DNA of 64,000 bases from contig CM114271.1 in assembly GCA_050084515.1 (NCBI GenBank), positions 34,968,001 through 35,032,000 on the forward strand. Reading direction: 5' to 3'. The position numbers and the translations under genes are program-made. This stretch comes from Blasia pusilla. Lineage: Eukaryota. The notes beneath the pieces are model-generated. The model did no database searches, was not told the DNA's origin, and saw only the letters and a program-made list of their open reading frames with translations. Positions 414 through 59,759 of the stretch are shown here, one piece after another (within the stretch, counting starts at the first letter, position 1; every line of letters begins with the position of its first letter).

Positions 414-2327
414 GAACAGGAGCAGTACTTCGGCCGGACAATTGTAGGACTAGGAAGAATGCACAAAGAGAGACGAGAGGAAATCCACTACGAAATTTCT
501 GCACCAAGCCTTGATAATGGATTTCTGCGTTACAATTGGTAGAGTTGACGATCGGGAAGAGGATGCAGTACCAATTGTAATGCAGAACCGACCGTTTGGG
601 ATACAGGTTCACTCCGTCCGCAACATTCCTGTTTAGCGAGAGAGCTATGGCCGGATCGCGCGGAGCTGGCAGGTAGTAAGTGACAAATGTGCTCTGCTGA
701 CGGTGTTTACTCCTGGCCGCAGCAGAGGTGAGAGATGTCAGGCAAGGGCTGTCCTCGGTTCGAGGAATAGACAGCGTCGTGCGAAGGGGTGACCGTCGTG
801 AATGTGATGCAACTATACCTTGCCACTTTCACAGAATGTGAGCGAGAAATCTTCTCAATTTTTTCAAGGACACTGAAAGTGACCGAGAATCGAACGGGGA
901 TGCATGCTCGTGCCAACAGAAAGCAAAATTACTGTACCGCAGCTTATCTGTTGGATTTCCTCCACCCGATCGAAACGCTTCTCCCTCGAGCTCCTCGAGC
1001 TGCGACAAGCCACACAAGCAGAGAAAGTGAGGGCAATTAGGCTGGAGTACGTCTGGCAAGCAATCCTGCGGATGTCCGATTGACCAGACACGGGAAATCG
1101 AAGGCCGTTGCAGGACATTCACATCTAGCGAAAAGAAAAAAAAAATTCAGGGAAACAAGCGGATTTTCGGGTCTGTTCAACGCACTTCTGCTCCGTCACA
1201 GTGGCCACGTTACAGTCGTGTTGAGGAAACCTCTTCACGTAGGCGTTCTTCAACGCCTCACGTCCAACCAACCCTAGAGATTTCAATTTGGGTAGCGTAA
1301 AGCATTATGAGCTTTCTCCTTTGGGATGGAGTCCACCGAACGTATCTATCGTATGGTCGCCCTGTGAGCAAGCACATGATTTCCGGGCTTGACTCCTTCC
1401 CTCGGAATGCTTTGGATGATGTACGGATGGACTATATCCAGACCTGATGTAAGGCTGTTATTGAGACGTCGATAATGAGGAATCTCATCATGGATTACCG
1501 CAGCGTTAATCTTGGAGCCAAGACTGATGTGAAGAAGTAGCCGCCGATCTTTACTACGTCGAGAGAACCGTATGAGCCAACGACCTGAATGGTTTCAGTC
1601 ACAACCAAAGAAGGTGGGCAGCGACGAGCTAGCACTTGGATGCTGAAGATGTTGAGGGGCTCGTCTGCAGAACCTCCAATCGCGGGTTGTGCAATTGTGA
1701 GCGTTACCCTCCACTTCCAGCATCTGTTTCCTTACTCTTCTTCATCATATTCTTCTTCTTCAAATTTGTATTGCTGTAGTATTGCAGTTGTATCGCTTGT
1801 ATTTCCTGTATTGCTATTGTCTTGCAGTATATTATTCTGAATCTTCGATTCGAGCTTTTCCTGCTTGAGCTACGAGTTCTGTAAGTTTTCAAATAATCGG
1901 GACATGTTTGGCGTCAGCATGCGACGTCATCGGATTTGTAGTTTCGCTTGGGTCCTGAGGAAGATGCAGGCTTTGGATTTGAGATTCGGCTCGGCTCCGC
2001 TACTAGTTCTACCACACGGGGTATGCTACGAACGCCTACTCCTTGCACAAAAGGTTCCCAAGTACGGTGGGAGATTTTGACTCACATGAAAACTACCATT
2101 TGACACGTTCCAGCAATTCGGACGGGCACAGATCCCATGACTCTTCACTTGGGAGGCAAACAAACTCCGTATGATGAGAGGATGGGTTTAGGTTCACTCC
2201 TGCCGGCTCTTCAATAAATGAGGAAATTGAGGCCGTTTTGGCCCCATCCCCGTCCGTTGGAGGGATGGACGGTGGAGAGACGGACGGCGTCGACTTGCAA
2301 CGCCGTCCGGACTGCCTTAGTCGGACG

Positions 2328-3792: not shown

Positions 3793-4341
3793 GTACTGAT
3801 TAAATCTGTCAAGAAGCTCTGTTAGACTCTCAAACTATTATTTTGGTCATTTTCCGGACTTGTTGTTGGACATCTCTCCACTCCTAAGTTTGGTTCTAGG
3901 AGGATCAGTCTATCCATATATATCCGAAATTTTTGAATTTTATTCTGGACTCTATTTGAAGCTAGACTTTCTGATGCTTGCATCCTTATTGCTGGTTTAT
4001 CTCGAACTTCTTCTTTCATCATCAAATTAGGACTGTTGGGACTTACGAGGTTTTTCTATGAATAGGGTTTACTTTTCTTTGAGATCAATTTGTGCATCAA
4101 TCGTTACTCATGTTAATGTTTGTGCTCCTTTGTGGATTGTGGAAACAAGCTGCTAGCTAGCAATTCGGACCATCTTGGATTAGGATAAATCATATTTAAC
4201 TTGTCGCAGCTCATGCACAGGAAGGATGGGCCTTCTCTAGTGTACAAGAATGCCAGATTGTTGTTTGTGAGTTGTGTAGGTTACTTGTAAGTCGGAAACA
4301 TCAACTCTGGATTTAATGTTGCATTCTCACCCAAGGCCCGG

Positions 4342-7322
4342 TTGGTGGGGGACCATGTATGGTTAGATTCTTGTTACCAGAAGAAGGGATTGACACAATT
4401 TCTACTGGTGGAAAACCAGGGAGGTAAGATGAATGTTGTCCGAATTAAAGACATCAAACATTTGATGGGGGCATCCAAACAGAACATGCTTGCCAAGATT
4501 GTTTGTACAATCCGGTTAAATAGGAGAGTGTCCACCTGTGAGGAGAAGGAACCTGTTCCTTGGGTTATCAGAGTTACTCCTAAAAGTATCTACCTTATCG
4601 ACCAGACTGATGTGGATGACAAAGCATATTTCAGATTTTTCCGAAGTATTGAGTTCCATGGCCCTTCTGAATTTAGCCCGGGGTATTTCTCGGTACCTTG
4701 CTTCCTTCTGGATTTATTTGTCAAATGGAGTTTAAGATTATTACCTTTGCAGTATTTACATGGTACACCAAAATTCCTCACGCATGTATCTTATTGCCCA
4801 TTGCCACGGCTGACCAATTCGAGTCTTTGTCTTCGTCTTGTGTGTAGGTAGTGGAGGCTCCTCTAGACCTTGACCACCTGTGCCATGTTATACTTAGGGT
4901 AGAAGTAAGTTTTCTTATGTTTATGGCCTCGGCACCAATACATAATTCGGATACCGGGTGAGAATACTAAAGCCAAAATCATGAATTCTCTTCAAATGGA
5001 ATTGGGAGAGATGTATCCTACAAATTTTGGTAAGAGTAAGGGGTATGGATGTGGCAGGAATTCAGTAGCTAGATTAGTTTAGATCTTTAGAAGTATGTTC
5101 TTACATTCCAGCCTTGCATTGCAATCGTTGTGGGACATGTGAAGCTTTTGGTTCATTTGGGTTTAGTAATACTCTGAGCAGCACATGTATGCTTGTATAT
5201 GTTGATGCGTAGGCGCATGAGTGTGAACTCGTTGTGGATACACGCTAGGTTGAAGCCCAACCAGCAAACATGTTTACTGCATTTTTGGGCAAGAGTGTAA
5301 GTTCTCCAGACAAACCAGCCTTTACAAATCTCTCTTTGGCGGGACCCGATGGAGTGGGTTCATTATTGCTACTCAAAGGAGCATAAGAAATTTGTGTGCC
5401 TATGCTCCAAGTGCATTGAGTACTTTCGCGGGTCAAGAACTTTTAACTCACACATTGCATCACATTGGTTGAGGTCGGTGCCTGGAACACCAAGGGCGAG
5501 TGGTAAGAAAAAGATGGAAGCAAACAATGACCGAGTTGACATAGAGGATGAAGATGATGGAAAGGGTGATGGAATTGAACTTTCATATGCAACAGTTGAG
5601 ATGGTAGCAATGAATGGTGCTCCGATTTCAAGATAGCCTTCCTTCATTGATTTATGTTCCGCTTATGGAGGGAACTAGGCTATCCCATCTGCAGCCAACT
5701 TACATCTGCGAGGCACCGTATGTTGCTTGGTTTCGGCTCCAGCATTCCATCGGTATGGTTCTTGTCTATCCATGATCCATATCGCAGTTAAATGGTGGAA
5801 AAGCAACTAGGCATCTCCAATACGTGGATCGCTGAGTTCTATTTACAGGGATAGTGAAAGAGAGAAGCTTGCGGTCTGATTCAATCCATCCTCTCACAGT
5901 GATGGTAGGGCATGCAAGTGCACCCTCTAGTTTTATCGGACATTCTCATGTTCATCTATCGTAGCCAAACCTGCTCAAGAAGTATGATTGTGTTCTTTTG
6001 TCCTATAACCCTCAAAAGCAATCAACACATGTGGCAAAATGGGCATAAGGACAAACGAGCCCGTCGCCCGTTTGGAATGCTTCTTGACTTTATTCAAAGA
6101 GCGGCCTTCTTCTGTTTTTTGTAATTAGCCCAACGTTGCGAGGCACCGTGCCAGATCTGTTGATTGCCTTTGAGGACTAAAGGACAGAGGAACACAATCA
6201 TATCTCTTGGGCAGGTTTGGCTAGGGTAGATGAGTGAGAAAAGGTCCGAGAGGACCTAGAAGGTGCCCTACCATCATTGTGAGAGGATTTATTGAATCAG
6301 GCCGCAAGTTTCTCCCTTCCACTATTCCTATAGATAGAACTCAGCAGTCCACGTATTGGAGATGCCTAGTTGCTTTCCATCATCTAGTTGCGATATGGAT
6401 CATGGATAGATAGTAACCATACTGTCGGGATGTTGGAGCCGAAACCAAACAGCATCAGGTTGAACATACTGAGCATGTTCTAGACGAAATGCGCCGAGCA
6501 CAAAAGCATGCATGATATATAAGCGAGGAGTACTACCTCCCACGCTTTAAGTTCAACTACAAGATTTGGAAAGATAAGAATAAACCTAGCATTCTTGCCA
6601 AGTTCAGGGATAAAGTCTCTCGAATGTATGTGCACGAAGTTGGCTACTCCCTTGCTGATGCGGTTGTCCGGGTATAGTGCTGCTTCATTTCATGCAAATT
6701 TCTCAATAGGAATTGTTGTGAGTTAATGATTTCCCGTCGTACCCCTCTAAATCCGCATTGTCTTTAATAAGTTCTAGATGTGCAAGGTGGCCTGGATGTG
6801 GAAATCATAGATTCTAGTGACTCTTACGGTAGTGATACACATCTCTCAAGTCCCCATCCCACCACGCATAGGACTGGACGTCATGTGATACAAGAGGACC
6901 AGGCACGAACTGAGGGTGGTGAGGAGGGTAATGCGGGAGTTTATGTCGAGGAAAGTGAGGAGGATACTATTCTGATTCAAAGGCGGAGGAGACCAACAAC
7001 GCTTCGGACACGTCATGTGCGTGGTGAAAAGGTGCAGAAGCGATGGAAGGATGCGGCAAGATCTCGAAAAATCCCACCGACTCAACCTGCAGTTGACGTG
7101 GGTGATTCTAGCGCGGTTATGGAGAGTCATGGGCCAGGTGATGATGGCCCAATTGAAGACTCGCATACCCTTGATAAAATGGTCTCGCAGGAGGATCCAC
7201 AAATTATGGAGACTGCACCCAAGGGCATGACTAGAGAAGAAAAAGTCCGAAGGAGGAGGATGATGATGGCTTCACAACATGTGTCTTGCATTAAGCTCAA
7301 TTCTGTCGATGATATTTTTTGA
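4342..7322 (+). pseudogene. Degenerate multi-exon accessory gene of the MULE with a C2H2 zinc finger and acidic tracts
   Basis: ORFs at 4342-4851, 5349-5636 (CSKCIEYFRGSRTFNSHIASH = C-x2-C-x3-F-x5-F-x2-H-x3-H) and 6780-7322. The 5349 frame continues through TAG stops to 5719 and resumes at 6149. Membership of the outer ORFs in the same gene is inferred. Confidence 0.55.
5720..6455. repeat. Long inverted repeat (arms 5720-6036 and 6149-6455, ~112-bp loop)
   Basis: Arms align end to end as reverse complements at roughly 80% identity by eye. Each arm is preceded by the same 13-mer, TGCGAGGCACCGT. Confidence 0.95.
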
Positions 7323-8835
7323 TTGTATGTCTTTGGACCATTTCCAGCAATTGCCCTTGTGTTGATATGTTGTAATGTGTTCTGAATCCTGCAGTTGGGA
7401 ATCTCAAGGATCGAGGCAAGGACCAAGAAGACCCTTTGGTCTTACTTTCATGGGAGGATATTGAAGGGTTTAGTGCCGACGAATTCCAGGCCACACCTTT
7501 ATCCGAGTTCTGCACTCCAGCATTGCGGCCTCTTGATGGCATGTCTCAAAGTCCTTGACCACCACATGGGATGACTTTTTTGTGAGTGTGTAGATGTATC
7601 ATGTGGTTTCCAAGTTGCCTTCTCCTTTGATTTGGTGAATGGCATCTAGTATCTTTTTGCATCAATGTTCTTGCATCTTGGCGGATGCTCATATCATCAT
7701 TTTGCAGATGTTTAGGACTTAGTTCATGACCAGGGCGCATCTTTAGAGTAAGTATAGGAGAGTACCTACCAGGAACATAGGCTTTGAACTTCCCTCATTG
7801 TGCTTTGGACTTCTCGTTAAACGGGCAAATTTCTATTCTTCATGTCTTCACTGATGGTTCTTATTTTTTGTGCAGGTGCAATGCTAAACGTTTAGTGTCA
7901 AGCTTCTCGCCCATATTTTCCCTTACCATGTTGTGTGTTATGAAGGTCTATCCAACAAGGTTAGGTTACCTTAGTTGGGCTATAGGTCATGGTCTTCTGA
8001 ACTATTCTGGAGGAAATGGTATGGACCAAAAAGATATCATTGTCAATAAAATTCAACACACAACTCGTCAGTGGATTTTTGTTCTTTGTCCCTAAGATTG
8101 TACTCTTGGATCATTTCGCAAAAAATTCCTCCTTACCTTATTCTGATGTGTCTTAGATGTTATGAATAATTACATGTGCTTCCACCTGTATTTGTTGGTA
8201 AACTTTGTAATCCATAATGAATTGATGTATGAAAACCAAGCTTGTCAATTCCAAAATTTTCAAGAAAGTAAATAACTCATGTGAAATCAACTCATAAACA
8301 CATGGAGTACATGACACCCTGGTCAAAATATAAGACAATTGTTCAAAATACTCAGAGCAAATACAAGTTTAGGGAACAAAATTGCAGTGGCAAGAAAAAT
8401 GTATGAAGAGCGAAATGGAGGTGTTTATTCATGAACACCTCAAAGTCTGTGTTTCAAAGTCATTCGTCTCATACGTTGGACTTTCAATTCTAGCCTTCTT
8501 GTTGTCTATCCCCCTCTGAAACAATTCTAAAGCCACTGTGACAATTCCGGTTAGACACGATTTTAATCATGCCCTAATTAGGGGAAGCTCACCTCGCACC
8601 GCTAAATGTTTACGAAGAGGCACGACCCTCAAGGGTAGGGTTTGTGGGCCTTCTGAGGTGTTTTTTTTTTAGTTACGACTATGGAGGTAGTCATAACTAG
8701 AATTACAGAAGTTCCCTAAAGTTGACACAAATGCGTGGCGATGCCGACTTCATGTCCCTAAACGTGAAGCTCACGGTGTTGCGATACCTCCCGTGGTTCG
8801 AGTACAAACATACTATCTAAGCAAATAGTACAGAG

Positions 8836-9449: not shown

Positions 9450-12400
9450 ATACATGCATCAGCTTCCAATTTCGCCTCCACATTCAGATATTTTGATCGT
9501 TTCGCTCACGGAAAGGACTCCACCTGGTTCATTATTGTTTGAGGTTGATTCCTCCCTTTGGAATGTGATCTCCTTCTTTGATGCAGCCGCTCTATCCAAT
9601 CCATCTGCCAACGCAGCCAACGATCATGAGACTTGCCTCCAACAAAGTGTTCGGGGAAGTGTTGTCCAATGTTAATTAATTTTTTTGGAAGTTCCATGTT
9701 CGTCTCTATCCGCCCTTCAGGTTCAAAAGTGAGTCCATATCCTTGTGCAAAAGTACATACAAATGTTCAAGAAGAACATTGCAGAATGGGACTCCAATGG
9801 TTGTGGCCAAGCATTTTTCCACCATCTCTCGAACATCTTTTGGAGTTTTTGCTTGTAATACAATTGTAGGTGTAGTAGCCTGCACCTCTTCTGGATAACC
9901 AACATCGTCAAAAATTTCTGATTCGACTTGTGTGCCTCCATGTTGCTCGTGTGCATGCCTTTGCACCATGTTTTCCAACCCACCGGCTTTGCTACCAAAA
10001 CGTGTGCCAAGGAAAGACAACAACTCTACTTCGGAGTGCCCACTCAACAATAAGCACTTCACCTGATACAATATAAAAAGTCTCAGTATGTTGCATGTAA
10101 AATTCTCGTACATCTAGTGCAGAAATAAGACATACTATCTGATTTCAGCTGGGACTATAACTTAATCACCAAATCCGGGGTGAACAAACACACCTGATGC
10201 TCACACGTGAACCCTTCATTGGCAGAGGGCATATACAAGCAACATCTTTCTTGTCATAGTCAACCACATCATGCCAATAGTCTGGCTTGGAGCAACTCTT
10301 CACCATTGCGCATTTCCTCCCATCTACCAATTGAAATGTGACATTGTTGTTTGGGATATCATTTGCCCTTCTTATAGCCATGAGCATGACTTTCTGGATT
10401 TCCTTGTTCCTCACCATACCCTCTCGTTTCAAAAATCCCAAGTACCAAAAGAAATCTTCTATTTCCCCGCATAAGATCTGCACAAGCCATATGAGCTCCC
10501 TGGTGGGTTTTGTAGGCATGCTAGAAGTGAGATGCATTTTCAGAGTGTGGTGCCACCTTTCTGTCGCAACATTCGTATCTTGGTTGGATCTTGCATGCTT
10601 ACGATAGCCCTTTGCCCAAGTAACAATCTTAGGATGCCAATAGTTTAGAAAGTACTTCACAAAGTGGCGTTCAGTTGCAGTCCACTTACGCATGAAACGA
10701 TATGAGACGTCCACATGATCTAGGAGAGAAAACCATTGCTTAATTAATATGTGGCCTACTCCCACACACATAGGACAAGGGACATAGCTGAGAAGCAATG
10801 AAACAAACTACTATTACTGACGAACAGAAAACATACCTTCTTCACGAGAGTACATGACACCACCCAAGTCTTTGTTCATGTCAGCTTTTGTAATTGGACA
10901 GCGGACCCGTTGGTGCAAATGTTTTAACCAATTCTTCCTTACATGCCATAAACACATGTCTATAGGAACATCAGGGAAGACTTCTCTTATTGCAGATTGT
11001 TCCTCTTTGGAGTCGTCAACTATGAAGCATGATGGTTTCCAACCGGGGCTATCAAGCGACGCAAGATCTCTTGTCATAAATGTATATGCCCACTCCTTGA
11101 TATGGGCCAATGCATCCACTAGATCCTAGTGTTGATGCCTGTGTAAAATGGCCCATACTAGAGGTAATCCATTTTGAAACTTGTCAAAACCCTGCAACGT
11201 GAATAGCTGATATTGTGAACATAAAAAAGAATATGTTCAGGATTCCGATTATTCATGTACATAGCTATTAAAGTGAACACAACATTCCAAATGTTCATAT
11301 TTCTACCAGATCGTGGAGCAACCGTTAGATGACACCACAAAACTTATTTAGCCTAGAGACTTCTCTAAGAGAATGACATTATGGTCGTAAGGCCCTAAAA
11401 TTACCTCAAATGTGTTTGTGCCATGAGTGGCATTCATGGAGATGGCTCCACCGTTACCAAGATGCAAAAGATTTTGAAGCATCCAAGGTGTAGAAATGAC
11501 AAGGCTGAAAGGTTGGCCTAAACTAGAAATGGCCTCCCTATAGTGTATGACATTTTCAAGATGAGCTGCAACCCAATGTTGGATTGTAGTGGCATCATCA
11601 ATTCCATCATACCCCCTTCACGTCTTCGCTTTGAATGTTTGATATTAAGGATATCTTGTGGTTTTAACATAGCATCCCTGCCCCAAGCTTGTTCCTGATT
11701 AGGAATATTGCGAATGTGTTTACGGATCCATCTCTATGCTCCTTCATGATATTTAAGGGGCTCACGTTCACTCGCAATAACCGTTCAACAAAATCCCTAC
11801 AATGAGAACTCAACTTCGGGGCAACAATTGCATTTGCAATGTCAGCAGTCGTGTCTAAGTCCCCATGGCATATACAACCTGCTTTATCGACATGCTTGGA
11901 ATGCATATGCCTCAACATAGAACACCCAGGGCGGTCGACCTTTGAGGTTACAACGGCAAAGTGAAATTGGCATCCACGTCCCTGAGATAGCCAAGCCATG
12001 TACTTTGGCTTTGTGGCCTACTACCCTTGCCTCCTTTGCAACGCCGGTTGGAATCAAATACCTCACGGTTGGAATCAAATACCTCATCTTGGCATATGAA
12101 AAGAGGTAACATGTATGTTCCCTGATTTGTTGATATTCCTTTTCCTATGATCTTGGGGTCTTCAACCCCATATGAACAAGAAAGGACCAAGGTATTTCTA
12201 TGAGTCCATTGTAACATGTATGTTCCCTGATTTGTTGATATTCCTTTTCCTAAATGTGGTGTGGAAATGTGGTCTTTGTTCTTCACCATGAACGAAGTCT
12301 TCAACCCTATCTGAAGGAATCCATGTCTCTTTTCTATTACCATACCAAATCAAGTGTTTGCTCAAGAAAGGACCAAGGAGAGGGTTTCGGATAACATCGC

Positions 12401-12590: not shown

Positions 12591-13608
12591 TGATGGACAT
12601 GTTTTGCTGGACTACAAACCAAGCGCTGTATCATTCACCATGCACGAATGTGACACCAATAGCTACTTCTGCAAATTAGCAAATGATATGGATTACATTG
12701 CTACATTTTCTGGAATACTCAATGCAAGTTTTCTGCCAGACTACGCAAATAATCTCACGTACAAACTTTGGTTCTTACATGAAAAAGTCTCAAAGTGGAC
12801 ACCATCCCCTAATCCGGCTTGTAATCCGTGGTCCCGGCTCATAATCAAGTTTGAACAAAATGCTTGCTAATGCTCGTGATCAAGTGCAAACAAAGCGATT
12901 GCTAATTGGCTCGTAATCCGATTCCAATCTCAGTTAATAATCTGATCTCTCCGCGCAACAAGCAAATCACGTTTCTCCCGCTCTTCTGGCTCCGTTCCAC
13001 GTTTGAACTAAACCCACTAATGCTGCCCTAATCCTTGCCCTAATCCCGACTGAACCCTAAGCGAGAAGCCTAATCCCATCGGCTCCGTTCCTGGCTCTCC
13101 ACCATCCAACCGTACATCGTCCGTCCCTCCAATAGACGGGGATGGACCCCAAACGACGTTGTCGCGACCTTCCCTCCCTCTTTTCCGAACTTAAAACCCA
13201 CGCCCAACGGAGCTCGACGTAGCCTCTACCCTACGCGACTTCAATGCATTTCCAAGACAAACTATGGGCTTCGAGTCTAGCTAGGTCATTCTAAGTCTCG
13301 AGTAGTGTACCCTGAGCACCCTATGCGAAGAAAATGAAAATGCGATTTATTAATGTTTTGTACTTTGGTGTGTGAAACCAAAAACTACACATATTTCCAC
13401 AAAATGTAAAATATGTGAAAAGGGAACGATATCAAAATGACATTCATACCAAAATTATTAGTTGGTTTATGTCATGCATAATTTTGAATTAAATTATTTT
13501 AAGTTATCTTATTGGTTTAGATATTGAGCAATTTTATTCGCTAAAAAAAATAGATATCAAAAGGAAAGGTGATTTCAAAATAAAGAGACATTTTTCAATA
13601 ATAATGCA

Positions 13609-14649: not shown

Positions 14650-14811
14650 CTAGTGGGCAACTCTTGCCATGCACGGAAGTGAAGGGACCAATCATGTTGG
14701 ACACAAAATATCTTCTTGCTTGTAGAGGAGGAAACATTTTCTTGGGGTTGCCACATGTCAAACAAATAGGTGTTAACAAATCAAGAAGGCACTCTCCAAT
14801 AATAGTATAGA
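14650..14811 (-). mobile_element. Internally deleted copy of the same non-autonomous Helitron
   Basis: On the minus strand it starts TCTATACTATTATTGGAGAGTGCCTTCTTGATTTG and ends CTAG. Confidence 0.7.
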
Positions 14812-15305
14812 TTATTCACAATCTTCAAAATTATGATATGAAATAAAGAGTAATAATTTTGCAAAGCCTATGTTCAAATACGCTTAGGAGAAAGAAGGAG
14901 AGGAAGAATGTGGACAAAGAAAAAAAATAGTAGGGATGATATGTACTTGTCCCAAAATCCACAAAAATAATTATTATTTTATCCCAAATAAGGATTCATG
15001 CACAAATGTCACTTTCTCATATGGAACTCTAAATATCGTTGTATTACACTACTTTGATTTAGACCCTTGAGCTTGCGTAATATCAAACTCTACCAAAACA
15101 CACCCTAAATGAATTGGCCCGATCTGAATATCATAATTTTTTTCATAGATAAAGAGCAACAGACATGGAGCATCAAAATGGCAACTTATTAATTTTTTTT
15201 ATAAATGTCTTATAATTGGTAAATTCAAACATAAACTAACATAACTAAACTTTTGGACTTTGAATCGTAATAGAGATGCATGTGAGGTTTACATGGTCTC
15301 TCTTA

Positions 15306-16132: not shown

Positions 16133-16745
16133 TTAGTATAGGTTTTCAAGCCCAACTCTAAACTCCGGATCCGTTCCATGCTCTTGAGCCGCCCTGTAGC
16201 GCCCAAAGTGGAGTTCGAGTCCCAAGCACCCTTGGAGACCTTCCCCCTTACTAGTACTTTTGGGGATCTCCAAACAACCCCTACCTTTGAAAAGAATGGT
16301 CGGGCCCTTCATTGTGGCCCTCAACCCGACTCTACTTACAGTCATTTTTGGGTTTTTTCTCATCCGCTTCTAGTGCGTTTTCAAAGATCTTTAGTGCGTA
16401 TGAACCGGATTTTTATAAGCTTTCCAACGCATCTTATTAGTCCCAAACGCATCTTGGCTCTAAAAGTTATGGCCATAAATACAGTCGGAAACTCTCAAAC
16501 GCTAGTGGCATCCCAAATCCGGATTCCTCCCTTTGGCAACCCACTTCCTAGACTTGACTCCTTTCAAGTCTTGATTCGCGTTTGGTCCAGGTTTCTAATC
16601 GTGACCATAACACATCAAACGCGAAGCCTTACTTGTGTCTCGTCTCTTCTCTGAGACCACTCCAATGCGCAAACCATCTTAGCATGAGCCCGCTAGTGTT
16701 CCGATGTTTCGCTTTGGCACTCGTTTGGTCATGAGGGTCGCGACA
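16133..16745 (-). mobile_element. LTR-like fragment, family 2 (starts TGTCGCGACCCTCATGACC on the minus strand); may extend further left
   Basis: Reverse-complement similarity to 19257-19875, and a TG-initiated terminus at 16745. Confidence 0.55.
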
Positions 16746-16989
16746 TCCCAGGTATTATCTTCCAATTAATCTCCACTCCCTCCTTGTACCAGATTTCATG
16801 GTGCTTGTGTCTCTCACGACATACGAGTTCTGGATGAAGTGCAAGTAGGAGTGAGATACCTTGGCTCCTAGGCTCCATCGCAAGTATGAGATTAGAAATC
16901 CAAGTTGAAAATGGTGATCAAAATCGAGGCGCTTGGTAGCAAACATAAGTGTCATTAAGATAGAGAGACATTTGAAAGCACCCTGGTCC

Positions 16990-17346
16990 TATCTCACACA
17001 CAACAAGAGAGGTGCTCCAACGGCCCAACATGAGAAAGATGGCTTGGGAAAGCCATCTTCCTCCCTTATATAGGGTTGGGAAGAGCCAAAAGGCTCTTGC
17101 CCTAAAAATAGCTATCCTCCTTGTAACTTGCCCGCACAAGTTACCAAGAGCGGGTGACCTGCTCAACAAGTCACCCAACTGTGAAAGATCTCAATAGGAA
17201 AGTTTTCAGAAACGATGTTTCTCACAAAATGGACCTATCCTCAATCTCATCCGACACCTCGGGACAAAGTTACACTCAAGATAGTCTGTTGGCTCTTATG
17301 CCCTATCCACGATAGATCTCGCCCTATCAACTACTCAGATGTGACA
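16990..17346 (-). mobile_element. Partial Ty3/gypsy LTR related to the LTRs at 46782 and 49060
   Basis: Shares CAACATGAGAAAGATGGCTT..AAAGCCATCT, GGGAAGAGCCAAAA.GCTCTT, CATCCGACA..TCGGGAC.AAGTTACAC and the AGATGTGACA terminus. Confidence 0.8.
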
Positions 17347-18100
17347 CGTGTTTTCTTATAAATCTACCTACTACTTTTGACAATGCACGATATGATACAA
17401 AAATTTCAGAGAACGCAGCCCCTCTACAATGCAATCACTTCCCCTCTCTGTAGCCGCACTTAGAGAACTGCCTTCTGTCGCCTCTTCCATGTCTTTAACT
17501 TTTCAATGAAATGAATTAATGAATCATGTGCGTAATGCAAGCTCTCTACAAAGAATGGAGTCGGTTGTCTCCACTACCTCGCTTGCATAGCTACCATCAA
17601 TCTCCCCTTCCACAACTACTGCTTTTCAATAAAGTGAATGAGCTATGTAATGAGGACCCTTGATGATACAATCTGTCCCTTCCAACACCTCACTTGCTCG
17701 CAAGACAAATAGGAGAGCGCATTCAAGATCATAGAGGGGAAGTGACTCCATTGTAGAGGGGCTTCCTTATGTGAATTTTTTGTATTATATTGTGCATTAC
17801 CTAAATTAGTAGGTAGATTTATAAGAAAACATGTGTCATATCTGAGTAGTCGATAGGCCGAGATCTATCGTGGATAGGGCAAAGGAGCCAACGTATTGTC
17901 TTGAGTGTAACTTTGTCTTGAGGTGTCGGATGAGGTTGAGGATAGGTCTGTTGTGTGAGGAACATCATTTCTGACAACTTTCCTATTAAGGTCTTTCACA
18001 GTCAAGTGACTTGTTGAGCAAGTCACCCGCCCCTGGTAACTTGTGCGCGTAGGTTATCAGGAGGATAGTTATTTTTAGGGCAAGAGCCTTTTGGCTCTTC
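17080..18100. repeat. Palindromic duplication: arms 17080-17450 and 17730-18100, 279-bp spacer
   Basis: Gap-free reverse-complement alignment at ~85-90% identity by eye. Confidence 0.95.
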
Positions 18101-19256
18101 ATTGCTGCCGATCCACAATTTTGACCATGCAACATTGCAAGCTCAAAATGCTTCACTTTTGAAAATTCCTGTGATTAGATGGCCGAGATCCTCGTGCCGG
18201 GAAATGATAGGTCCAATATTTAAAACCTCGCTTGTTCCAATCTTATGAGTTTACATTTGTGAAAGTAGTAAAAAATCTCTGATCAAACTGTGAGCATCTT
18301 TTCCGAAAACTTGTGCATGGGCATCAATACGATAGGCACAACGTTTGCATCACTCAGGGATTCATCGGAGAGGCCCTCGATCTCTTGGCTATGGCGCGGC
18401 GTTGGATTGTGCTAGAGCTCGATTAGATCCAGAGTTGGGAACGCAAATGGCTGCTTAATGCAAATGGTATCTCCTTGACCAAGAATATACTTCTCAACAT
18501 CTGTCTGAGAGATGAATCCCCGATGTACTTAATGTCTGCCAGAGGGATGAATTGCTGAAATAGTCAATGTCTGTTGGATTTATTGTGCATCTGTTGAATT
18601 TTCTACGTGTGTTGGATTTAGTGCGGGGTGTGTGATGAATTGCTATATCAGCGAATCAAAATTTTCACCCTCATCACAAAGACATAGACAGAGAGGGGCG
18701 CCACGGATCGACTGTGAGATTTCATGGATCAAACCAAAGAGGCAAATAGGAAGAATCATGCATCAATATGCAACACCCAAGGGACGTCTACTTGGTAATG
18801 CAACTTCCTCTTACTATTCACAGTATTAGAAATATAGTGTGAAACAAGAATCTAGCTTTGCAGCGTGGTCTATGGGAGACGATTGAAGAGCTTTGAGATT
18901 CCTTTCTAACAACACTATGAGATCCAAGCAAGCATATTCTAAGTCCAAGCAAAAAGGTGGTAAAAAAATCACCTCCAACGTCGTTGCCAGGCTCCAATGT
19001 CCCTCCAACCACGCCTATTCACACAAAACTCCACACTTCCAATTCTCACAACTCCACCTTGCAATTTCGACTTCTTTGACTCCAACTTTGGCCCCAAATT
19101 AGCTATTGGAGGAGTCTGAGTTATACCAAAGTTAATTTATGGACTATTACACACCTATGTGTGGATACAGGATCTCAGTAATTCACATCTAACATACAAA
19201 AATATATGTGGTCGTAAAGTCCCTTTAAACCTCCAATGAACACACTACAGGCATTC

Positions 19257-19875
19257 TATCGTGACCCTCATAACCAAGCGTCAAGCGGAACATGCAAACT
19301 CTAGCGGGCTCATGCTAGGATGGTTTGTGTGTTGGAGTAGTCTCTTGGAAGAGATGCTAGAGACACAAGAGATGAGATGCGAACAAGGTTGAGCATTTCA
19401 TGTGTTTAATAGGAAACATGGATCAAACGTGAACCAAGACTTGATGAGGAGTTGAGTCTAGGAAGGTTGGTTGCCAAAGAGGTAAGAACCGGATTTGGAA
19501 CATGACTAGAATTTGGGGTTTCAATTATAATTTGGACCATAACTTCTAGCCTTGAGATGAGTTTGGGACAAGTAAGGTGGCTTATGCAAAGCCACTTCCA
19601 ACGCACGAAAGATATCAGTAAACGCAAAGGTAGAGGCTGAGATATTGGCCAAAAAATTTGTTTAGGGAGTTAGGTTGAGGGCCAAAATGAGGGGCATGAG
19701 GGTCTCTTCCCCAAAGGTAAGGGGAGGGCGGAGATCCCCAGAAGTACTAATAACAAGGAAGGTCTCAAAGAGTGCTTGGGACTCGAACCCCACTTTGAGG
19801 CGTTGTAGGGTGACCCAAGGGTATGGAATGGATCGGGAGTTTTAGCGTTGGGATTCGAAACTCGAACAACCTACA
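19257..19875 (+). mobile_element. LTR-like fragment, family 2, in opposite orientation to 16133-16745
   Basis: TATCGTGACCCTCATAACCAA...CTAGCGGGCTCATGCTAGGATGGTTTG...GTGCTTGGGACTCGAACCCCACTTTG matches the reverse complement of the 16-kb copy. Confidence 0.6.
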
Positions 19876-20085: not shown

Positions 20086-20792
20086 TAATTGATGCTAGTG
20101 AGGTGCTCCGCACATGTAAATTTCAAATTTAAAAATATTCATCATTAGCTCTCCTCGACCATAAACGATTAGAAGTTTGGAGAACGGAAAAAAAACCCAC
20201 ATACATATATTTTAGGGAGAAAAAAAAATTCGAATTTGATTGACATGTGTCGAACTAGGAGGAGATCTAAATCAAGAAGGGTTCAATAATAATAATAATG
20301 TCCAAATTTGCCATCCATTTCCAATGATAATAAAGCCATAAAATTTAGGCGCCGCCATAAGGTGGGCCCCTTACTGGTCAAGTTTAAAGCAACAACTTTC
20401 CGAAGGATGTCCCGAACTTCGTAGATGTTCTGCCGGCAATAGAACGTTCACGCGACATTGCTCTTACGGAATTTCCAAGCATCCATGAAATCCCGGAATT
20501 GACACCCCCATTAAATCGCTCACTGCACCAGGGTCCGGGGAGTTTTTGGTGACAACCGGTAAAACCGAGCGGCAATTTTCGAATTTTTCTTCATGCCGGC
20601 CGGCTAAATAGATACAAATACAAAGGAAACCGGTAAGTGAGAAATCGGAAATTCTCAAATTCTTCCGACCAGCTCAACACGTAACCCCGGTAAAGGTTCA
20701 GGGCTTTGCGCACTCTCTGGTGCAGGCAGTCTCTGAGTTTCCCTCCGAAGTTGTTGCGGTGGAGGGATAGATTGAGTGCGTGGGCTGTGGAG

Positions 20793-23000
20793 ATGGAGAT
20801 GGCGATGGCGTTGAGTTGGCCCTCGGGCCCGTGTTCAAGTCTCTCGTTCTCGTCCTCTCTCGGCGCGTCCGCGAGTCGATCTGAGCGCTCGCGCCACGGG
20901 AGGAGACTGCGGGCGGACGTCTGCCAGAAGCTGCGGAGAATTGCAATTCCTGGGGCTTGGGATTCGACGCGGAGCCAGAAATCGAAGTCACGGGGTTTAG
21001 CTTTTCGTCTTTCAATAACAGCAGCCACCAAGGAGGCTCCTCAAAATGTGGACTTGCCTTCCGTGCTCCCCAAAAGAAAGAAGAAGCCCAAGGCGACGTC
21101 CAGGAAAATCAAGAAGAGCAGGCGTCCGGCGTCATGGGTGGAGCCTATTCCGAAGGCGCCTGCGAATGGTATGTTGGTTCAGTCGCTCATCCCCGTGGCT
21201 CATGAGGTGATGCGCGCGAAGGCGATCGTGGAGAACGGTGTCAATCACCTCATGGAATCTATACCTGTCAAGACTTGCAGGTACAAGCAGAGGCGTTGTG
21301 GCCGGATGAGAGTCTAGAGCTGTCGAGGTAGGGTTTTTAGGGCTGGATATTTCTTTCGTGCTGGGCTGGACAGAGATAGCCTCATGGCACCTGTGGGACG
21401 GACGATTCGCAGTTTATCGGAATTATCAATTTCCTTCGTGTGATCTTGTGGTGTTTGCAGGTACTGCACGGAGACTCATGTTGGACCCATTGGACATAAT
21501 CTGGCTACCTGTCGTGGCCCGAGTGCTGATCGGCGACATTCTCGCCATGTTTGGATAAAAGGGACTGTTGACGACGTCATTGTACCAGTAGAAGCGTACC
21601 ATCTTGCAGATAGACTGGATGCACCCATAACTCATGAGCAGCGTTTTGATGTCGAGAGGATTTTAGCTATCGATGAACTTTGCATACAAGCAGGTGTAAA
21701 TGTGCCCGAGTACCCGACAAAGAGATACACGGAACCTGTTCTGCCTACCACCAGAAAGAAACGGGAGGATGCCGAATGGATGGGAGACGGGAAATTTATG
21801 GGATACACAATTAATAGAAGCAGGCTTTCAAGCATTGAACCTTCGAATTCCTCGTATGGGACTGGCTTTGTGGAAGAGGTGAACACTGTTGATAGTCGTT
21901 TAGAGGAGTGGGCTGATGAAACTCTATCTACTGTAGTAACTGACACGGATATAGATTCAGGAGACGTCTCCTATGACTCTGAAGCTTCCTCCAGCTTCAA
22001 ACGCTCGGAAGACGAAGAAGAGAAGAAGAAGAAGAAGAAGAAGAAGAAGAAGAAGAAGAAGAAGAAGAAGATGATGATGATGATGATAACGAAGCAGATA
22101 CCAGTGGGAGCCAGGATAATGGGGAGAGTCGTTATGATACTATCAATAAATCTGCAATTGAAGTAGAGGCAATGCCTTTGCTTGAAATTTATGATGAAGA
22201 CGACCTACAATCTGTCGCAGAGAAAACATTAATAGCATGGGATACTATGCGAGGAGGCGCAAAGAAGCTGATGACCAAGTATCGGGTAGTCTCCTGTGGG
22301 TGAGTCTGCCACCTTTGTCTGTTCTCGATTTTGGTCATTTTCCGCCAATTATCATTGTGACTCGTAGCCTGTCATTTCCTGGTGCTTTTCTTCTGCAGTT
22401 CTGGTATGATCAGTGTTCTGCAATTTCTGATCATTCCAAGACTGTTGCCCTTCACCGAAGGACTGTCAATTCGACTCTTACCCCCTGTACTTGTACGTAG
22501 TTGTACTGATGTTCCTGAGTTATAAGGGAATTCGGTTTTTCTCGCCCAAGCCGGTTCTCTCTTTTTAAGATACGGTCTAAGATGTCTCATACGCACAGTG
22601 CAGATGTGTCCTATGCATATTTCCAGGCAGAAACCCAATGAAGATGCCCGTCTTATTTAATTAGTTCTAATCTCTGTCCAGGTACTGTCCAGAGGTTCAC
22701 GTAGGACCAAGAGGCCATAGAGCGAAAAATTGTGGAGCATTCAAACACCAGTGGCGGGATGGTAAACACGGATGGCAAGATGCGCCTTTGGATGAGTTCA
22801 TCCATCCTCAGTTTGTCTGGCATGTTCGAGATGTTGATGGACCCCCGTTGGAAAGTGCACTTAAAAGGTTCTACGGGAAGGCTCCTGCGGTGGTGGAACT
22901 CTGCGTCCAAGCAGGTGCAGCTGTGCCGGAGAAACATAAACCTTTGATGCGGCTGGACATAGCAATCCCTACTCTTGACGAGCTGGAGCACGTTGTGTAA
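20793..23000 (+). CDS. APO: APO (Accumulation of Photosystem One) family zinc-binding RNA-binding protein; exons 20793-21280, 21461-22299, 22682-23000; 1-bp frameshift at ~22021
   Basis: Contains PQNVDLP..PKRKKKP, PANGMLVQSLIPVA and two APO domains (CRYCTETHVGPIGH...ELCIQAGV; CGYCPEVHVGPRGHRAKNC...FYGKAPAVVELCVQAGA). GT-AG junctions are in phase. Total 1646 nt, one base short of 549 codons. Paralog number not assigned. Confidence 0.92.
22014..22087 (+). repeat. (GAA)n(GAT)n coding microsatellite
   Basis: Direct observation. Encodes poly-Glu/Asp in the restored frame. Confidence 0.95.
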
Positions 23001-27108: not shown

Positions 27109-30100
27109 CTACGTTACCCTCAAGCGGTTGAAAGTGGTGGCCAAGGATGAAGTGCGAAATTGTGACGCTTTTGGCTGCCACAGCTTCCAAAGTCGATCGT
27201 GGCTGGCTGTGACTAAAAATTCTGCCGTAGGAGACCAGGCAGCGTCGAAGACATGATCACTGTGCGAGCTGTTCAACAAACATGCCGACCGTACAGCCAT
27301 CAGCCAACGGATAGATAAGCATGGATAAACAAATCAGGAGTCAACGCATTTCCCGAAACAGATAGCTCTCTGTTTGGGGTTCAACCACCAGCGGTGTTCT
27401 GTGCTTCTGGTTGCGAGTCTCCTTCCGTCTCCTATGTTTCATGTGGCGCCAGCCTTTTGAGACCGTGATGGGGAGCCACCAAGATCGAGATACGAGGGGC
27501 ACGAGTTCATGGCACGAACTGTAGAGAGGCTTGGACCATGAAATCCGTTTTCACCAGTCGAAAGACGGCAAAACCTGATCAAGAGCAAAGGAGAGGCCAT
27601 AATTACCTCAGAACGTTGAGGCACTCAAAAGTGGCCGTATTGAAGAGTCGAACAGTTGTGTCTCCGGAGGTTGTGGCCAGCAATTTTCCAAATGGTGAAA
27701 AGGTTACCCTTTTCACCTCTCCGGAATGTTCTTGCAAAACAGCTAGGAGGTTCCCCATTCGCAAATCCCAGACACGGCACGTTTTATCGTCACTCCCAGT
27801 AGCGAGAAGAGTGCCAGAGTCATCAATATCCACTCCAATTACATCTTCCTGGTGGCCCCGCAGTGTTTGGACATCCTCTGCTGATCGTGGATCCCATAGC
27901 TTTGCTGTAAAATCAAAGGAAGCGGTTGCAACAAGGTGTCCGAAGGGTTGAAAGCAGACTCCATAAACCCCATTCCGATGACCCTGTGGATTCAATTCTA
28001 AACATGTTAGTCGACATGGTATCAGCAATGACGTTCCAGGAGTGCTCGTTAAATTGATAACCGTCTTGCTGTTCTGGCCATTACATGATTCTCAAGTTAC
28101 ACGGCTCTAATGCCACGGAGTGTATTTCTGGCTGTAAAAGAAGAAACAGACGCAAAGATTTGGGTTACTACAGTACACATTTGAACATATCAACCAGGTT
28201 TTATCTCATGTCTGCTTGTAAGCATCCGTGATCTCATAGAACGAAAAGCTTGGTCAATTCAAACCATACCAGGTAATCCCAACTACATTCCTTGGTTGGA
28301 ATTTTATTCATTCATATTTCATGTAACATATGCTTTGGTTGTGTGATCCACTGGCGAAAATGCAATATCATTACATGAGAGATCACACGGATACGGAGAA
28401 GTAAGAAAGATTTGACGTCAAACAACATACATTCGGGTGATTTTCTTCAGAGTCCCCTACGTCGACTTTCAAATTTATTGACTAGCCCCATCTTCTGATC
28501 GATGATGCACCTCAAAAACGGTTACCTTGGCCAGGAGGCAACCATTCTGAAAGTGAGGGTCATGGCAAGACCAAACATTGGATACTCGCAGTAACAGGGG
28601 TGAAAAGAAACCGCTTCATTAAGCTACCCCATGTCGGATCCACAAGACTGTTATTACCAGCTAACTCGTGGTGCAGAGATGTACAGCTACACGAAGAGGA
28701 CACTAGATTGTTCGTGCACAATAGATTGAGGAAAGACTTACTTTTAAGGTTATAACAGAGATGCCTTTCTCTGCATCCCAGATCATGCTGCACTTGTCAT
28801 CTGATGCTGTGGCAAGTAGATGCGTTCCCTGCTTGAAAGAAAGCCCATTGACCTACGAACGCACACAAGCCAATCCAAGATTGTTAGTACTGACCATTGC
28901 TAGCATCCCACAGAATTTTGCTACACAAAATGAAATCTAGCCTTACCGGGCATCACAGGAGTCGGACCCCAATAGACCACCGAAGGCATTCCACAGAATT
29001 TTCTTGAACAAGGCAATTGCTTCCAGACTTCTCTTCATCCAAGTAGCCATAGCACCCTACCGCTTTCTTAAGTATCTATCTAAAGGATGAAACACCAAGC
29101 CTATACATTCCTTGTTGGGCCCAACTAAGATATTCTAACATGCACGTAGCTCTTCAGCTAACTTCATGATACTACTCGACAAAAGAGACCCAGGTAAACC
29201 ACAAGGTCATGAACAAGTGCAAGGTAAAGAGAATACTATCGTATTGCGATCATGATAAATTACCTCATCAGTGTGACCTTCAAGGATGCGCAGACATTCC
29301 CCTGTATCTGTATTCCATAAGCGGCATGTTTGATCGGAACTCACAGTACCCACTAAATCACGCTTGGCAGGGGAAAACTTGACTGCGTAAAGACCTAAAA
29401 GATGCCCTGATAGCACAGATACTTCCTCTTCCAATTGAATGTCGTACACTCTGCATGAATGGTCCCAGGATGCTGTAGCCACCAGATTCCCAGACGGGCT
29501 TACCGCAATACCATGTACCGGACCAGAGTGCATGGAGAATGTATGGCCTAGTTCCCATTTTCCGGCTGCTAACCTCTCTTCCACTTTCAAGGGCGGCCGC
29601 CTTGGGCCCCGTGCCAAACTTAATCCTGTCTCAATTGTATTACATGACAACTCTGCATAGCTCACGCTAGGATGATATGCAGTCCCATTGCTATCTATGT
29701 CTACATCAAAACCTGGAAATGTCCCTTCTCCACCGTAGGTCATGTCATTCTCAACTTCCCAAACAGTGTTGCTCTCTGGGATGCTACTCCGAACATTTGG
29801 GCGGAGCCTTACATCTAGGGCCTGCTTCAGTCTAATATTTTCTTCGGAGAGAGACTGTACTTGAGCGGAGAGTTCTTGTTTCAGTTTCTCCAGCTTCGCC
29901 ACCTGAACCTTCAGCTTGGCTCGTTCAACTACGACTTGTTGCCAACGCTCTGCCACTTTTCCAAGCACAAACTTCACCTGCACATCTTCCTCATCACTGC
30001 CACTTTTTGGCAGGCAAGTGGGTACCCCTGGCCTTTCATTACTGATACCCTCGCCAGTTTTTTCTCTTTTAGATTCGGACCTTTCAGTGTGGTCGCTATT

Positions 30101-31608: not shown

Positions 31609-32118
31609 TCAACCTTCATCAAAGCAGTCGCCTTTCCCCGCCAATTTGACCCACTGACGCTACCGATCAATATCCTTCGCCTCCATCCCCAAAGAACGAA
31701 TGAACTCTCATTTCGATCCCATCGCTGGCGCATTTGAACCTGCGACGACAACCTAGACCTCCTCCCTCAAGTCCAGATAGCCAGATTCTGCCCCAGAGCG
31801 CGCTCCCAATAACCCATGCACACGCAAAAACCTCGCAACTCAAACTTCAGCGACCCGCCCGCCTCCCCACACCAAACGAATCGAGAAGGCCGTGATGTGC
31901 ACCACTGCAACGGCGTGCAACCACAGACCCACACAAAGGAGGATCCATCTCCCTCCCCATCCCTTCCGACGCGGCAATGACACAAATTCAAGAGGCCCAC
32001 AAGCATCACAGTTGCCTGGAGATCAGACCAAGTCGTGAGCAACGACCGAAAGCGTCAGACCCAAGCCATACTACCCCGGAACGCAGAGGTGGCAAGAGGC
32101 GGAACATTCCTCGTCTTT
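30972..32118. repeat. Segmental duplication copy 1 (RING exon, upstream region, start of intron); copy 2 at 42116-43268
   Basis: Collinear same-orientation similarity over ~1.15 kb, for example TAGCCGAGTGGAC, GCATCACTCCGAAACCAAA and CATTTGAACCTGCG. Confidence 0.9.
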
Positions 32119-42464: not shown

Positions 42465-42747
42465 CAAAAGTACGGCTAATCGGCCTCCCACTCTCAAGTT
42501 TGCCAGCGAGAGCATACGGTGAATGTGGGATGCCTGAATAGTGATCATAAAGAGGTTTTGGAGCCGAAGGAGTGGAAATGGATAGTCGGTAAGCTCGGCA
42601 CGAAGCATCACTCCGAAACCAAAGCGCAGCACACGGAGTGCAGAAAATCTGACCGCAATGCCAGATTCGAGCCTGAAAGCAACCTTCCTGATCCGACACG
42701 CGCTCAAAGCAGATTTTGCAGGAGAGGCCCATAATCGTCAATTCCAT
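42465..42747 (-). pseudogene. Pseudogenised duplicate of the RING exon
   Basis: MELTIMGLSCKICFER..CGQIFCTPC..CRAY has lost His and Cys ligands, carries a 1-bp deletion, and its splice donor changed from GTATGT to GAATGT. No WD40 exons follow. Confidence 0.88.
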
Positions 42748-59531: not shown

Positions 59532-59759
59532 TGAGAGAGTGGAATCTATAATTTCCATGGTTGGCTAAGACCTTATGGGGTATCGCTTTACTCGCAAGAT
59601 ATTCTTAGCATCATTTTTATTGTATTTTTTCCTTTAGGGGATCTTGAGTGCTCGGATTACTTGCAACTCTTTGATGTGACATGGTACATGTGATGCATTG
59701 CTCGCATCCAAATATTTGGATGTGAGCATGTTCTAATAAGGAAGAGATTTTTCATTGAG

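Follow-up and report, generated by a model that had tools for sequence, protein, structure and literature searches.

The 64,000-nucleotide stretch of the Blasia pusilla genome analysed here (contig CM114271.1, positions 34,968,001 to 35,032,000 of the forward strand; hereafter the window) contains the transposase gene of a Mutator-like element (MULE) and, facing it on the other strand, a second gene, referred to as the accessory gene. Part of the second exon of this accessory gene, exon B, is present as an inverted duplication. We consider, with a probability of about 0.5, that this is an old inverted duplication that arose inside exon B of a non-transposase gene, in a now dead copy of a high-copy MULE-associated family, and that it is probably a minor source of small interfering RNAs (siRNAs). 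The original prediction, made from the letters of the window, described a hairpin like Mu killer (Muk) of maize that could silence the accessory gene of its own family. We class the locus as a candidate of a known kind, the transposable element (TE)-derived inverted-repeat hairpin locus, and not as a Mu killer.

The inverted duplication and its fold

The two arms of the duplication, 5720-6035 and 6150-6455, are 84-85% complementary, in agreement with the reverse-complementary arms first reported. The global alignment of 5720-6035 to the reverse complement of 6150-6455 has 258 identical positions in 303 aligned columns (85.1%), with 35 transitions, 10 transversions and 16 gap columns. With stricter gap costs, 256 of 305 columns are identical (83.9%), and there are 38 transitions, 11 transversions and 12 gap columns. 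The repeat search gave three collinear inverted pairs, 5715-5801 with 6374-6460 (87 nt, 82%), 5800-5912 with 6264-6376 (113 nt, 89%) and 5936-6036 with 6149-6249 (101 nt, 81%), which together cover 5715-6036 and 6149-6460. The present stem is composed of 316 and 306 nt and encloses a loop of 114 nt. The 13-mer said to precede each arm, TGCGAGGCACCGT, is located at 5707-5719 and again at 6137-6149. Moreover, 10 bp of the left arm (5911-5920) are absent from the right arm, as expected from the 10-bp deletion proposed for the sense copy.

Folding, which the original prediction had called for, was carried out on 5700-6470. The + strand RNA reaches -491.9 kcal/mol, compared with -219.0 +/- 8.5 kcal/mol for 20 dinucleotide shuffles (z = -32), none of which was as stable; a chance origin of the inverted repeat is thereby ruled out. 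The - strand RNA of the same segment folds at -455.0 kcal/mol (z = -40).

Arrangement of exon B in other copies of the family

Raw reads of a DNA run (X16) and of an RNA run (X19), together with two contig sets (X1 and X2), all from the same organism, were placed on 5100-7000 at 80% likeness. The sample of X16, about 1/100 of the run, gave 691 placed DNA reads, and that of X19, about 6/100 of the run, gave 1131 placed RNA reads. Joints were tabulated when at least three reads supported them. A search of sequencing runs gave no RNA run among the runs listed, the best of which share 0.05-0.15 of the sampled words.

The segment 5100-7000 belongs to a numerous and diverged family. Only one DNA read is at least 99% alike to the window, while 12 are 95-99% alike, 201 are 90-95% alike and 477 are below 90%. 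Among the RNA reads, 2 of 1131 are at least 99% alike and 1040 are below 95%, most of them below 90%. The DNA depth in the flanks is 40-86, and the one read of at least 99% likeness suggests a single-copy depth well under 1, so that the read depth points to a high copy number. The further genomic copies that a silencing locus would need as targets do exist, as hundreds of family reads match the right arm and the flanks. The low depth over the outer left arm was also considered as a measure of copy number and was rejected, since reads pick their arm by the adjoining Y' or W segment, as defined below.

Most other copies of the family lack the inversion. The best-supported joint connects 5719 to 6139 on opposite strands, and it is found in 30 of the 691 DNA reads (28 start places), in 87 of the 1131 RNA reads and in one X1 contig; minor variants of this joint lie at 5716, 6118 and 6092. 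DNA depth is 25-59 over 5932-6123 (54-59 over 5996-6123) but 4-8 over 5740-5931. Furthermore, the orientation of the RNA reads is reversed exactly over 5932-6123, where the first mate lies on the + strand at depths of 29, 60 and 55 versus 4.8, 8.7 and 27.5 for the other orientation; this is expected if that piece is inverted only in the arrangement of the window. A direct joint from 5719 to 6150 is absent among the joints listed in this sample. The joint, the depth, the reversed RNA orientation and the missing direct joint together establish that normal copies have the order X-Y'-Z-W in one open frame, in which X ends at 5719, Y' corresponds to 6139 down to 6036, and Z is the arm. In the window the order is X-rc(Z)-rc(Y')-GAGGCACCGT-Z-W, where rc denotes the reverse complement and GAGGCACCGT is the final 10 nt of X.

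The loop of the hairpin is also ancestral coding sequence. Read as its reverse complement, the inverted block extends the frame of X by 14 codons from a start at 6138; from a start at 6139, Y' and the coding frame of Z form one open frame, so the two frames are one base apart. An extra base after 6097 is present in 35 of 44 DNA reads and in 28 of 28 RNA reads, and the consensus of the loose ends at 6098, read by eye against the window, has the same extra base. Given this offset of one base and the extra base of the family, Y' comprises 105 nt, or 35 codons, of ancestral coding sequence. It had been proposed that an antisense copy plus a loop was dropped into one open reading frame (ORF). The ancestral exon was indeed open, but the loop is not filler, since it is Y' inverted along with the arm.

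Two further observations concern the variation within the family. Of the 44 DNA reads, 24 have G and 11 have C as the additional base after 6097, whereas all 28 RNA reads have C. Just a C-type subset of the family seems to be expressed in that RNA run, and the X1 contig with both arms looks, from its equal depth of 13.3, like a G-type copy. Going upstream, the DNA depth drops at about 5228 from about 45 to 16, and 21 of the DNA reads continue before 5218 into a shared sequence that is unlike the window. The part ahead of exon A is therefore different in most family copies, which may have another intron or an insertion there or may reach the edge of the shared unit.

Reading frames, state at birth and age

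The frame of X, which was reported to run to HLRGTV and to resume beyond the inverted block, does so: X ends with HLRGTV at 5718-5720, and PDLLIAFE follows from 6151 on in the joining frame. This in-frame joint of X to Z is genuine and would reflect an in-frame loss of Y' from the direct copy. The four stops of the right arm, TAA at 6178, TGA at 6235, TAG at 6411 and TAA at 6414, correspond to TAT, CAT, CAA and GAA in the left arm, which is the pattern described in the original prediction. Conversely, the right arm has TGG and GAG at two stops of the left arm on the same codon grid, and CTA at a third (TAG) when the ungapped translations are compared by eye. A gapped alignment had paired the TGA at 6235 with a TGA of the left arm; this candidate shared stop was dropped, since family reads support the ungapped pairing with CAT. 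Under a gap-poor alignment no stop is common to both arms, which argues, as had been supposed, that the exon was open when it was duplicated. Today, the copy in the window is dead: stops interrupt both arms, exon B and the MULE domain of the transposase gene.

The Kimura two-parameter distance between the arms is 0.17-0.19. TEs of grasses change at 1.3e-8 per site per year, a rate that may not suit this plant; given this rate, the duplication would be about 6.5-7 million years old. At 147 places the window has A or T and the family reads of X16 have G or C; 71 places show the opposite. The observed/expected ratio of CpG is 0.52 and 0.38 in the two arms and 0.65 in the window. Such A/T-ward change and low CpG are the usual decay of methylated TE DNA.

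The accessory gene

The family gene is a real, spliced and expressed gene composed of exons A, B and C. Exon B corresponds to 5670-6671 in window coordinates. The joint of the first intron, 5558 to 5670, is supported by 43 RNA reads and one X1 contig and by no DNA read. A variant joint, 5535 to 5670, occurs in 24 RNA reads, with 23 diverged letters between the two sides, and in no DNA read. RNA depth over this intron falls to about 13. The joint of the second intron, 6671 to 6786, is found in 82 RNA reads (47 start places) and one X1 contig, again with no DNA read, and splicing it out preserves the frame into the ORF of 183 amino acids at 6771-7322.

The product resembles no known family in the libraries that were searched. 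The original prediction had labelled it a C2H2-finger protein. A C-x2-C-x12-H-x3-H motif can indeed be read in the translation of exon A, at 5403-5465, but no curated zinc-finger model matched: Pfam gave no family for the accessory ORFs at E up to 0.1, nor, at E up to 1, for 4200-7400 read through in three frames. In the Atlas, zf-BED clusters scored 0.90-0.91 for the accessory gene, and these were kept as a lead only. A word-indexed search for longer proteins returned 30 candidates, none of which scored. The sole HMMER match among 1.84 billion representatives (E = 1.5e-4) was rejected as chance; its Pfam rows name four families, each with no passing stretch, and none of them is a zinc finger. 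Rfam gave no match on 5000-7400 at E up to 1.

Transcription of the family and of the hairpin

The first mate lies on the - strand in nearly all of the 1131 RNA reads. In the usual stranded libraries, a first mate on the - strand corresponds to + strand RNA. This orientation, which agrees with the GT at the start of the second intron, indicates that the family is transcribed from the + strand.

On the outer left arm (5740-5931), RNA reads in the + strand orientation reach depths of 9.5, 6.1 and 3.4 and those in the other orientation 4.6, 1.8 and 1.5, whereas the minority orientation makes up about 3-6% in the flanks. Misplaced sense reads would show the opposite excess on this arm, so the excess observed points to + strand RNA from an arrangement like that of the window. 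At position 5837, 8 of 8 RNA reads have the letter of the window. Moreover, an X1 contig of 554 nt, at depth 13.3, runs from the left arm through the loop into the right arm (positions 5801-6352), with 22 differences from the window and 2 gaps, and an X2 contig covers 5761-5890 with 3 differences. X1 is probably an RNA set, because both spliced joints occur in X1 contigs, and the arrangement of the window thus occurs in an independent data set, and probably there as RNA. These data are suggestive of + strand transcription through the antisense arm, with both arms in one RNA. We propose that the copy in the window is still transcribed at a low level from the + strand, and that the resulting RNA, holding both arms, would fold into a long imperfect hairpin.

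Silencing potential

In plants, Dicer processes RNA polymerase II (Pol II) transcripts of long inverted repeats into siRNAs, according to the excerpted text of PMC10827316. Among TEs, Mu killer is the textbook example (PMC3440606 and bioRxiv 10.1101/2020.01.07.897926). The hairpin RNA of the window would likewise be a substrate of Dicer, and it would probably contribute, to a minor extent, small RNAs antisense to the family's exon B. When it was new and perfectly paired, the locus may have acted like Mu killer. The longest perfect runs of the present stem are 29 and 22 bp, and 11 of 299 windows of 21 nt are fully paired by Watson-Crick pairs; when G:U is allowed, the number is 30 for the + strand RNA and 13 for the - strand RNA. 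In its decayed state the locus could be, by this analysis, at most a weak silencer in trans.

Several points weigh against even this modest role. The RNA depth over the antisense arm is just 3-10, from one run placed at 80% likeness, and that X1 is RNA is a guess. As for the origin set out below, whether there was one complex event or two steps, and in what order, we infer only. Sense transcripts of the family are numerous and spliced in X19, at a depth of 50-160, and their abundance means that the family is unsilenced at the level of RNA. Mismatches make up 15-16% of the stem, and few perfect matches between small RNAs and targets are expected, because most reads are less than 90% alike to the window. 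The ratio of G:U to A:C pairs for the + strand RNA is 23:12 (p = 0.09), or 25:13 with stricter gaps (p = 0.07), against an expectation of 0.5; tested against the C>T to G>A ratio of the copy itself, 78:69, the skew gives p = 0.17. In the outer half of the stem, for which a bias of about 2:1 had been estimated by eye, the direction is as estimated (14:7), but the formal test that had been asked for does not make it significant (p = 0.19). As evidence of selection for a + strand RNA, the G:U excess is thus not significant in any test. The longest perfect duplex, of 29 bp, was also considered as a conserved core like that of a microRNA and was rejected (shuffle P = 0.10). With a non-significant G:U excess and an unremarkable longest run, nothing indicates selection on the stem.

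The nearest competitor, which we hold to be somewhat less probable, is a neutral relic, that is, an accident of repair or replication in a dead copy, whose RNA is without effect and whose small RNAs are of the ordinary Pol IV type. This would fit the stops, which interrupt both arms, exon B and the transposase domain, as well as the divergence of the arms, in which transitions prevail (35-38 of 45-49 mismatches). It would also fit the A/T-ward excess of 147 to 71, a pattern of long-methylated DNA, the lack of any sign of selection on pairing and the abundance of family transcripts. Another long imperfect inverted repeat lies 11 kb off, so such structures are not rare here. However, the + sense RNA over the antisense arm exceeds what misplaced family reads would give, and a probable RNA contig runs across both arms. 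Furthermore, a transcribed stem of 300 bp with perfect stretches of 22-30 bp is expected to be diced in plants, as far as the excerpted text of PMC10827316 goes.

That the window holds an active locus like Mu killer, whose siRNAs silence the accessory gene heritably in trans, and whose G:U skew reflects selection for the + strand hairpin, is unlikely. The structure that such a locus would need is present, since sense and antisense copies of an exon segment lie in one + strand transcription unit. Its targets are present as well, as the family is numerous, expressed and mostly uninverted, the inversion being private to the copy in the window or to very few. At the time of the duplication the exon was still intact. 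The + strand RNA folds more stably than the - strand RNA by 37 kcal/mol (-491.9 versus -455.0 kcal/mol), which is in the direction that selection would favour, as are the G:U to A:C ratio and the larger number of paired 21-nt windows for + strand RNA; the fold difference restates the G:U skew. On the other side, abundant, spliced sense RNA of the family occurs in the same run as the left-arm reads with window letters, the skew is non-significant (p = 0.07-0.17), and most targets diverge by more than 10%. In addition, the duplicated piece is an internal exon of another gene, whereas Muk, in the published passages on it, covers the terminal inverted repeat (TIR) and promoter with the 5' end of the transposase gene and acts by transcriptional silencing. 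For the original prediction, this means that the structural part stands, apart from the nature of the loop, while strong present silencing is argued against by the abundant sense RNA of the family, the diverged arms and the non-significant G:U excess. We would likewise give little credence to a working natural killer that is driven by the promoter of the element's accessory gene and directs siRNAs against exon B of an expressed family of several hundred copies. If it were true, the G:U skew and the 37 kcal/mol would be traces of selection on RNA, and the locus would be the first killer aimed at a non-transposase gene, with a readable origin as a template-switch palindrome followed by a central deletion.

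Origin of the duplication

The junctions suggest how the old duplication that we favour may have formed. When the start of W is reverse-complemented (...AACCTG), it is similar to the end of X (...CACCGT). The reverse complement of Y' ends with TGC, which are the first three letters of the 13-mer, and Y' and Z each begin with GC after a T. Microhomology-mediated template switching yields products of this type. A nascent strand of replication or repair would have arrived at 5719 and, by a homology of ACC near 5715, moved to the end of Z on the complementary template, so that Z and Y' were copied backwards. It would then have switched back at TGC (6137-6139) into the end of X, and as copying went on, a near-perfect palindrome of 420 bp with a centre of 10 nt would have resulted. 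Long perfect palindromes are unstable and tend toward resolution by central deletions. The direct Y' may have been lost in the same event or soon after, by a deletion beside the centre of the palindrome, which would have left the loop of 114 nt.

The states of the two arms at sites of family variation bear on this proposal. We compared 18 sites at which the right arm differs from the family, taken from a listing of the best-supported sites; 447 more sites lie beyond that listing. The left arm has the family state at 12 of the 18 sites and shares the difference of the right arm at 6. The 6 shared differences favour a duplication within the lineage, with the arms as sister copies. They speak against a capture, in which a copy already without Y' would have received the 420-nt rc(Y'Z) from another family copy as filler in gap repair, with a target duplication of 10-13 bp. 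Such a capture would account for the in-frame joint of X to Z at 6149/6150, for the 13-mer on both sides of the inserted block and for the 12 sites at which the left arm, and not the right, has the family state. It would, however, require a subfamily without Y', which is not seen, as no joint from 5719 to 6150 with at least three reads is listed in the sample of about 1/100, and we find it improbable, a little more so than the active killer. An assembly artefact, made by a chimeric fold-back read or a misjoin, is refuted as far as these data go: inverted duplications are an artefact of some long-read libraries, but artefactual fold-backs are near-identical, whereas these arms differ at 45-49 positions and by several indels, and independent contigs cross the left arm, loop and right arm (X1) or lie inside the left arm (X2).

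Comparison with known systems

Natural triggers of de novo TE silencing in plants are few, and those named in the accessible portions of PMC3440606 and bioRxiv 10.1101/2020.01.07.897926 are Mu killer and two Ac killers. Muk, like the present locus, is a natural inverted duplication of part of an element of the Mutator superfamily that could give a long fold-back RNA, and the rearranged copy is itself defective in both cases. According to the same portions of these two sources, Muk duplicates TIRA and about 1.3 kb of the 5' part of mudrA, is driven from outside or from within the locus, and is a genetically proven, dominant and heritable silencer that causes transcriptional silencing. In contrast, the piece duplicated here is an internal exon segment of about 0.3 kb from a non-transposase gene, which would be transcribed as part of that gene's + strand RNA. 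It lies about 3.4 kb from the nearest bracketing repeat and does not include a TIR, a promoter or the 5' part of the transposase gene. Its arms have diverged by 15-16%, its origin by template switching would be confined to 0.75 kb, and the locus is known from sequence and reads alone.

The Ac killers of maize, p1-ww-id1 and p1-ww-id4, are transcribed inverted duplications that produce double-stranded RNA and siRNAs of 21, 22 and 24 nt, and one of them is apparently driven by the promoter of the element itself (bioRxiv 10.1101/2020.01.07.897926, in the text accessible). The locus in the window shares with them an inverted duplication of transposon sequence that lies within a transcription unit. 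The Ac killers differ in that, as described in that text, they are proven silencers, belong to hAT elements and arose by alternative transposition with re-replication, with kilobase repeats in duplications of megabase scale; the junctions in the window suggest template switching at homologies of 3 nt, within 0.75 kb. The class of endogenous inverted-repeat siRNA (endoIR-siRNA) loci, described in Table 1 and the text of Figure 1 of PMC10827316, is also comparable. In such loci, and in young MIRNA genes that arose by inverted duplication of their targets, a fold-back stem from a duplicated target is transcribed by Pol II and passes from perfect to imperfect pairing. They are defined by their small RNAs, whereas the present locus is known from its fold and from RNA reads of low depth.

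The arrangement of the element recalls MuDR, in which mudrA and mudrB lie on opposite strands and are convergent (PMC3440606, in its accessible portion), as do the transposase gene and the second gene here. The second gene of the window differs in having no similarity to anything in the libraries searched and in being assigned to the MULE by its position. No title in the literature searched, which was judged mainly by titles and is not a basis for claiming absence, reports a natural hairpin against a MULE accessory gene. The locus is a clean structural candidate: the junctions are legible to the single base, the family is both large and transcribed, and the normal copies are uninverted. It could show the birth of such triggers and their decay with growing divergence of the arms. 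For the present, it counts as an ordinary product of TE rearrangement, an example and not a principle.

The element and its surroundings

The window is gene-bearing plant DNA, as its APO RNA-binding and WD40 genes show (Table 1).

Table 1 Features of the window, with positions numbered from its first letter.
Feature	Position	Strand	Remarks
Exon A of the accessory gene	5301-5558	+	Open frame 5301-5636; RNA depth at most 158, + strand RNA orientation
First family intron, 111 nt	5559-5669	+	Holds the TAG at 5634-5636 that ends an ORF of 111 amino acids
Start of exon B (end of X)	5670-5719	+	In-frame TAG at 5676-5678; 13-mer at 5707-5719
Left arm, antisense copy of exon segment Z (316 nt)	5720-6035	-	Retains the 10-bp piece at 5911-5920
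Loop, ancestral coding segment Y' inverted along with the arm	6036-6139	-	104 nt here, 105 nt in the family
Re-copied final 10 nt of X	6140-6149	+	With TGC at 6137-6139 forms the second 13-mer
Right arm, sense copy of Z (306 nt)	6150-6455	+	Four stops, 10-bp deletion
Remainder of exon B (W1)	6456-6671	+	Frame; RNA depth 81-112
Second family intron, 114 nt, starts with GT	6672-6785	+	RNA-only joint
Exon C, long open frame with many charged residues	6786-7322	+	ORF 6771-7322, 183 amino acids; RNA depth 67-120
MULE transposase domain	10931-11233	-	PF10551, E = 7.5e-8, 33.2 bits (cut-off 27.6)
Left member of the bracketing inverted repeat, candidate sub-terminal MULE repeat	2234-2287		54 nt, 76% complementary to 13102-13155
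Right member of the bracketing inverted repeat	13102-13155		Pairs with 2234-2287
APO RNA-binding gene	20694-22163	+	Two ORFs, PF05634, E = 1e-14 and 4.6e-40
WD40 gene	29210-30202	-	One ORF with WD40 repeats, E = 3.6e-17

The match to PF10551 covers profile positions 8-99 of 99 as a single stretch across a stop in the read-through frame. This in-frame stop, at 11126-11128, lies within the matched stretch of the MULE domain, and the transposase gene is broken for this reason. On the same strand, TAA, TAG and TAG stand in a row at 10808-10816, between two transposase ORFs of the same frame; unlike the stop at 11126-11128, they could be the start of an intron rather than damage. A word-indexed search for longer proteins with the transposase ORF returned 169 candidates, none of which scored.

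The pair 2234-2287 and 13102-13155 is the sole inverted repeat that encloses both the transposase gene and the + strand gene that bears the hairpin and faces it. Attempts to extend the repeat beyond 54 nt gave poor alignment, so that the termini of the element are undefined, and a target-site duplication with matching termini was sought at the flanks of the repeat and not found. Of the features that mark a MULE, a transposase with a MULE domain is present, though with an internal stop, while in place of long TIRs and a target-site duplication of 9-11 bp just the 54-nt inverted repeat of 76% was seen. Because termini and target-site duplication were not found, we assign the accessory gene to the MULE by position alone.

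Other repeats in the window

A second, larger palindrome occupies 16204-19797. Its arms, 17080-17450 and 17730-18100 (371 nt, 87% complementary, 279 nt apart), are nested in the inverted pairs 16643-16714 with 19283-19354 and 16204-16289 with 19712-19797, and parts of it recur directly at 47049-47392 and 49119-49528. It probably represents a family of long-TIR or foldback elements. Direct repeats of about 400 nt, 81-84% alike, are located 11.1 kb apart at 31348-31744 and 42487-42884, and between them, at 38383-38784, there is a weak match to a reverse transcriptase (PF00078, E = 5.8e-4), below the cut-off. The segment 31348-42884 is probably an old long terminal repeat retrotransposon. Finally, 59108-59535 consists of a tandem unit of about 211-213 bp, 83-89% alike, one piece of which resembles 14748-14812.

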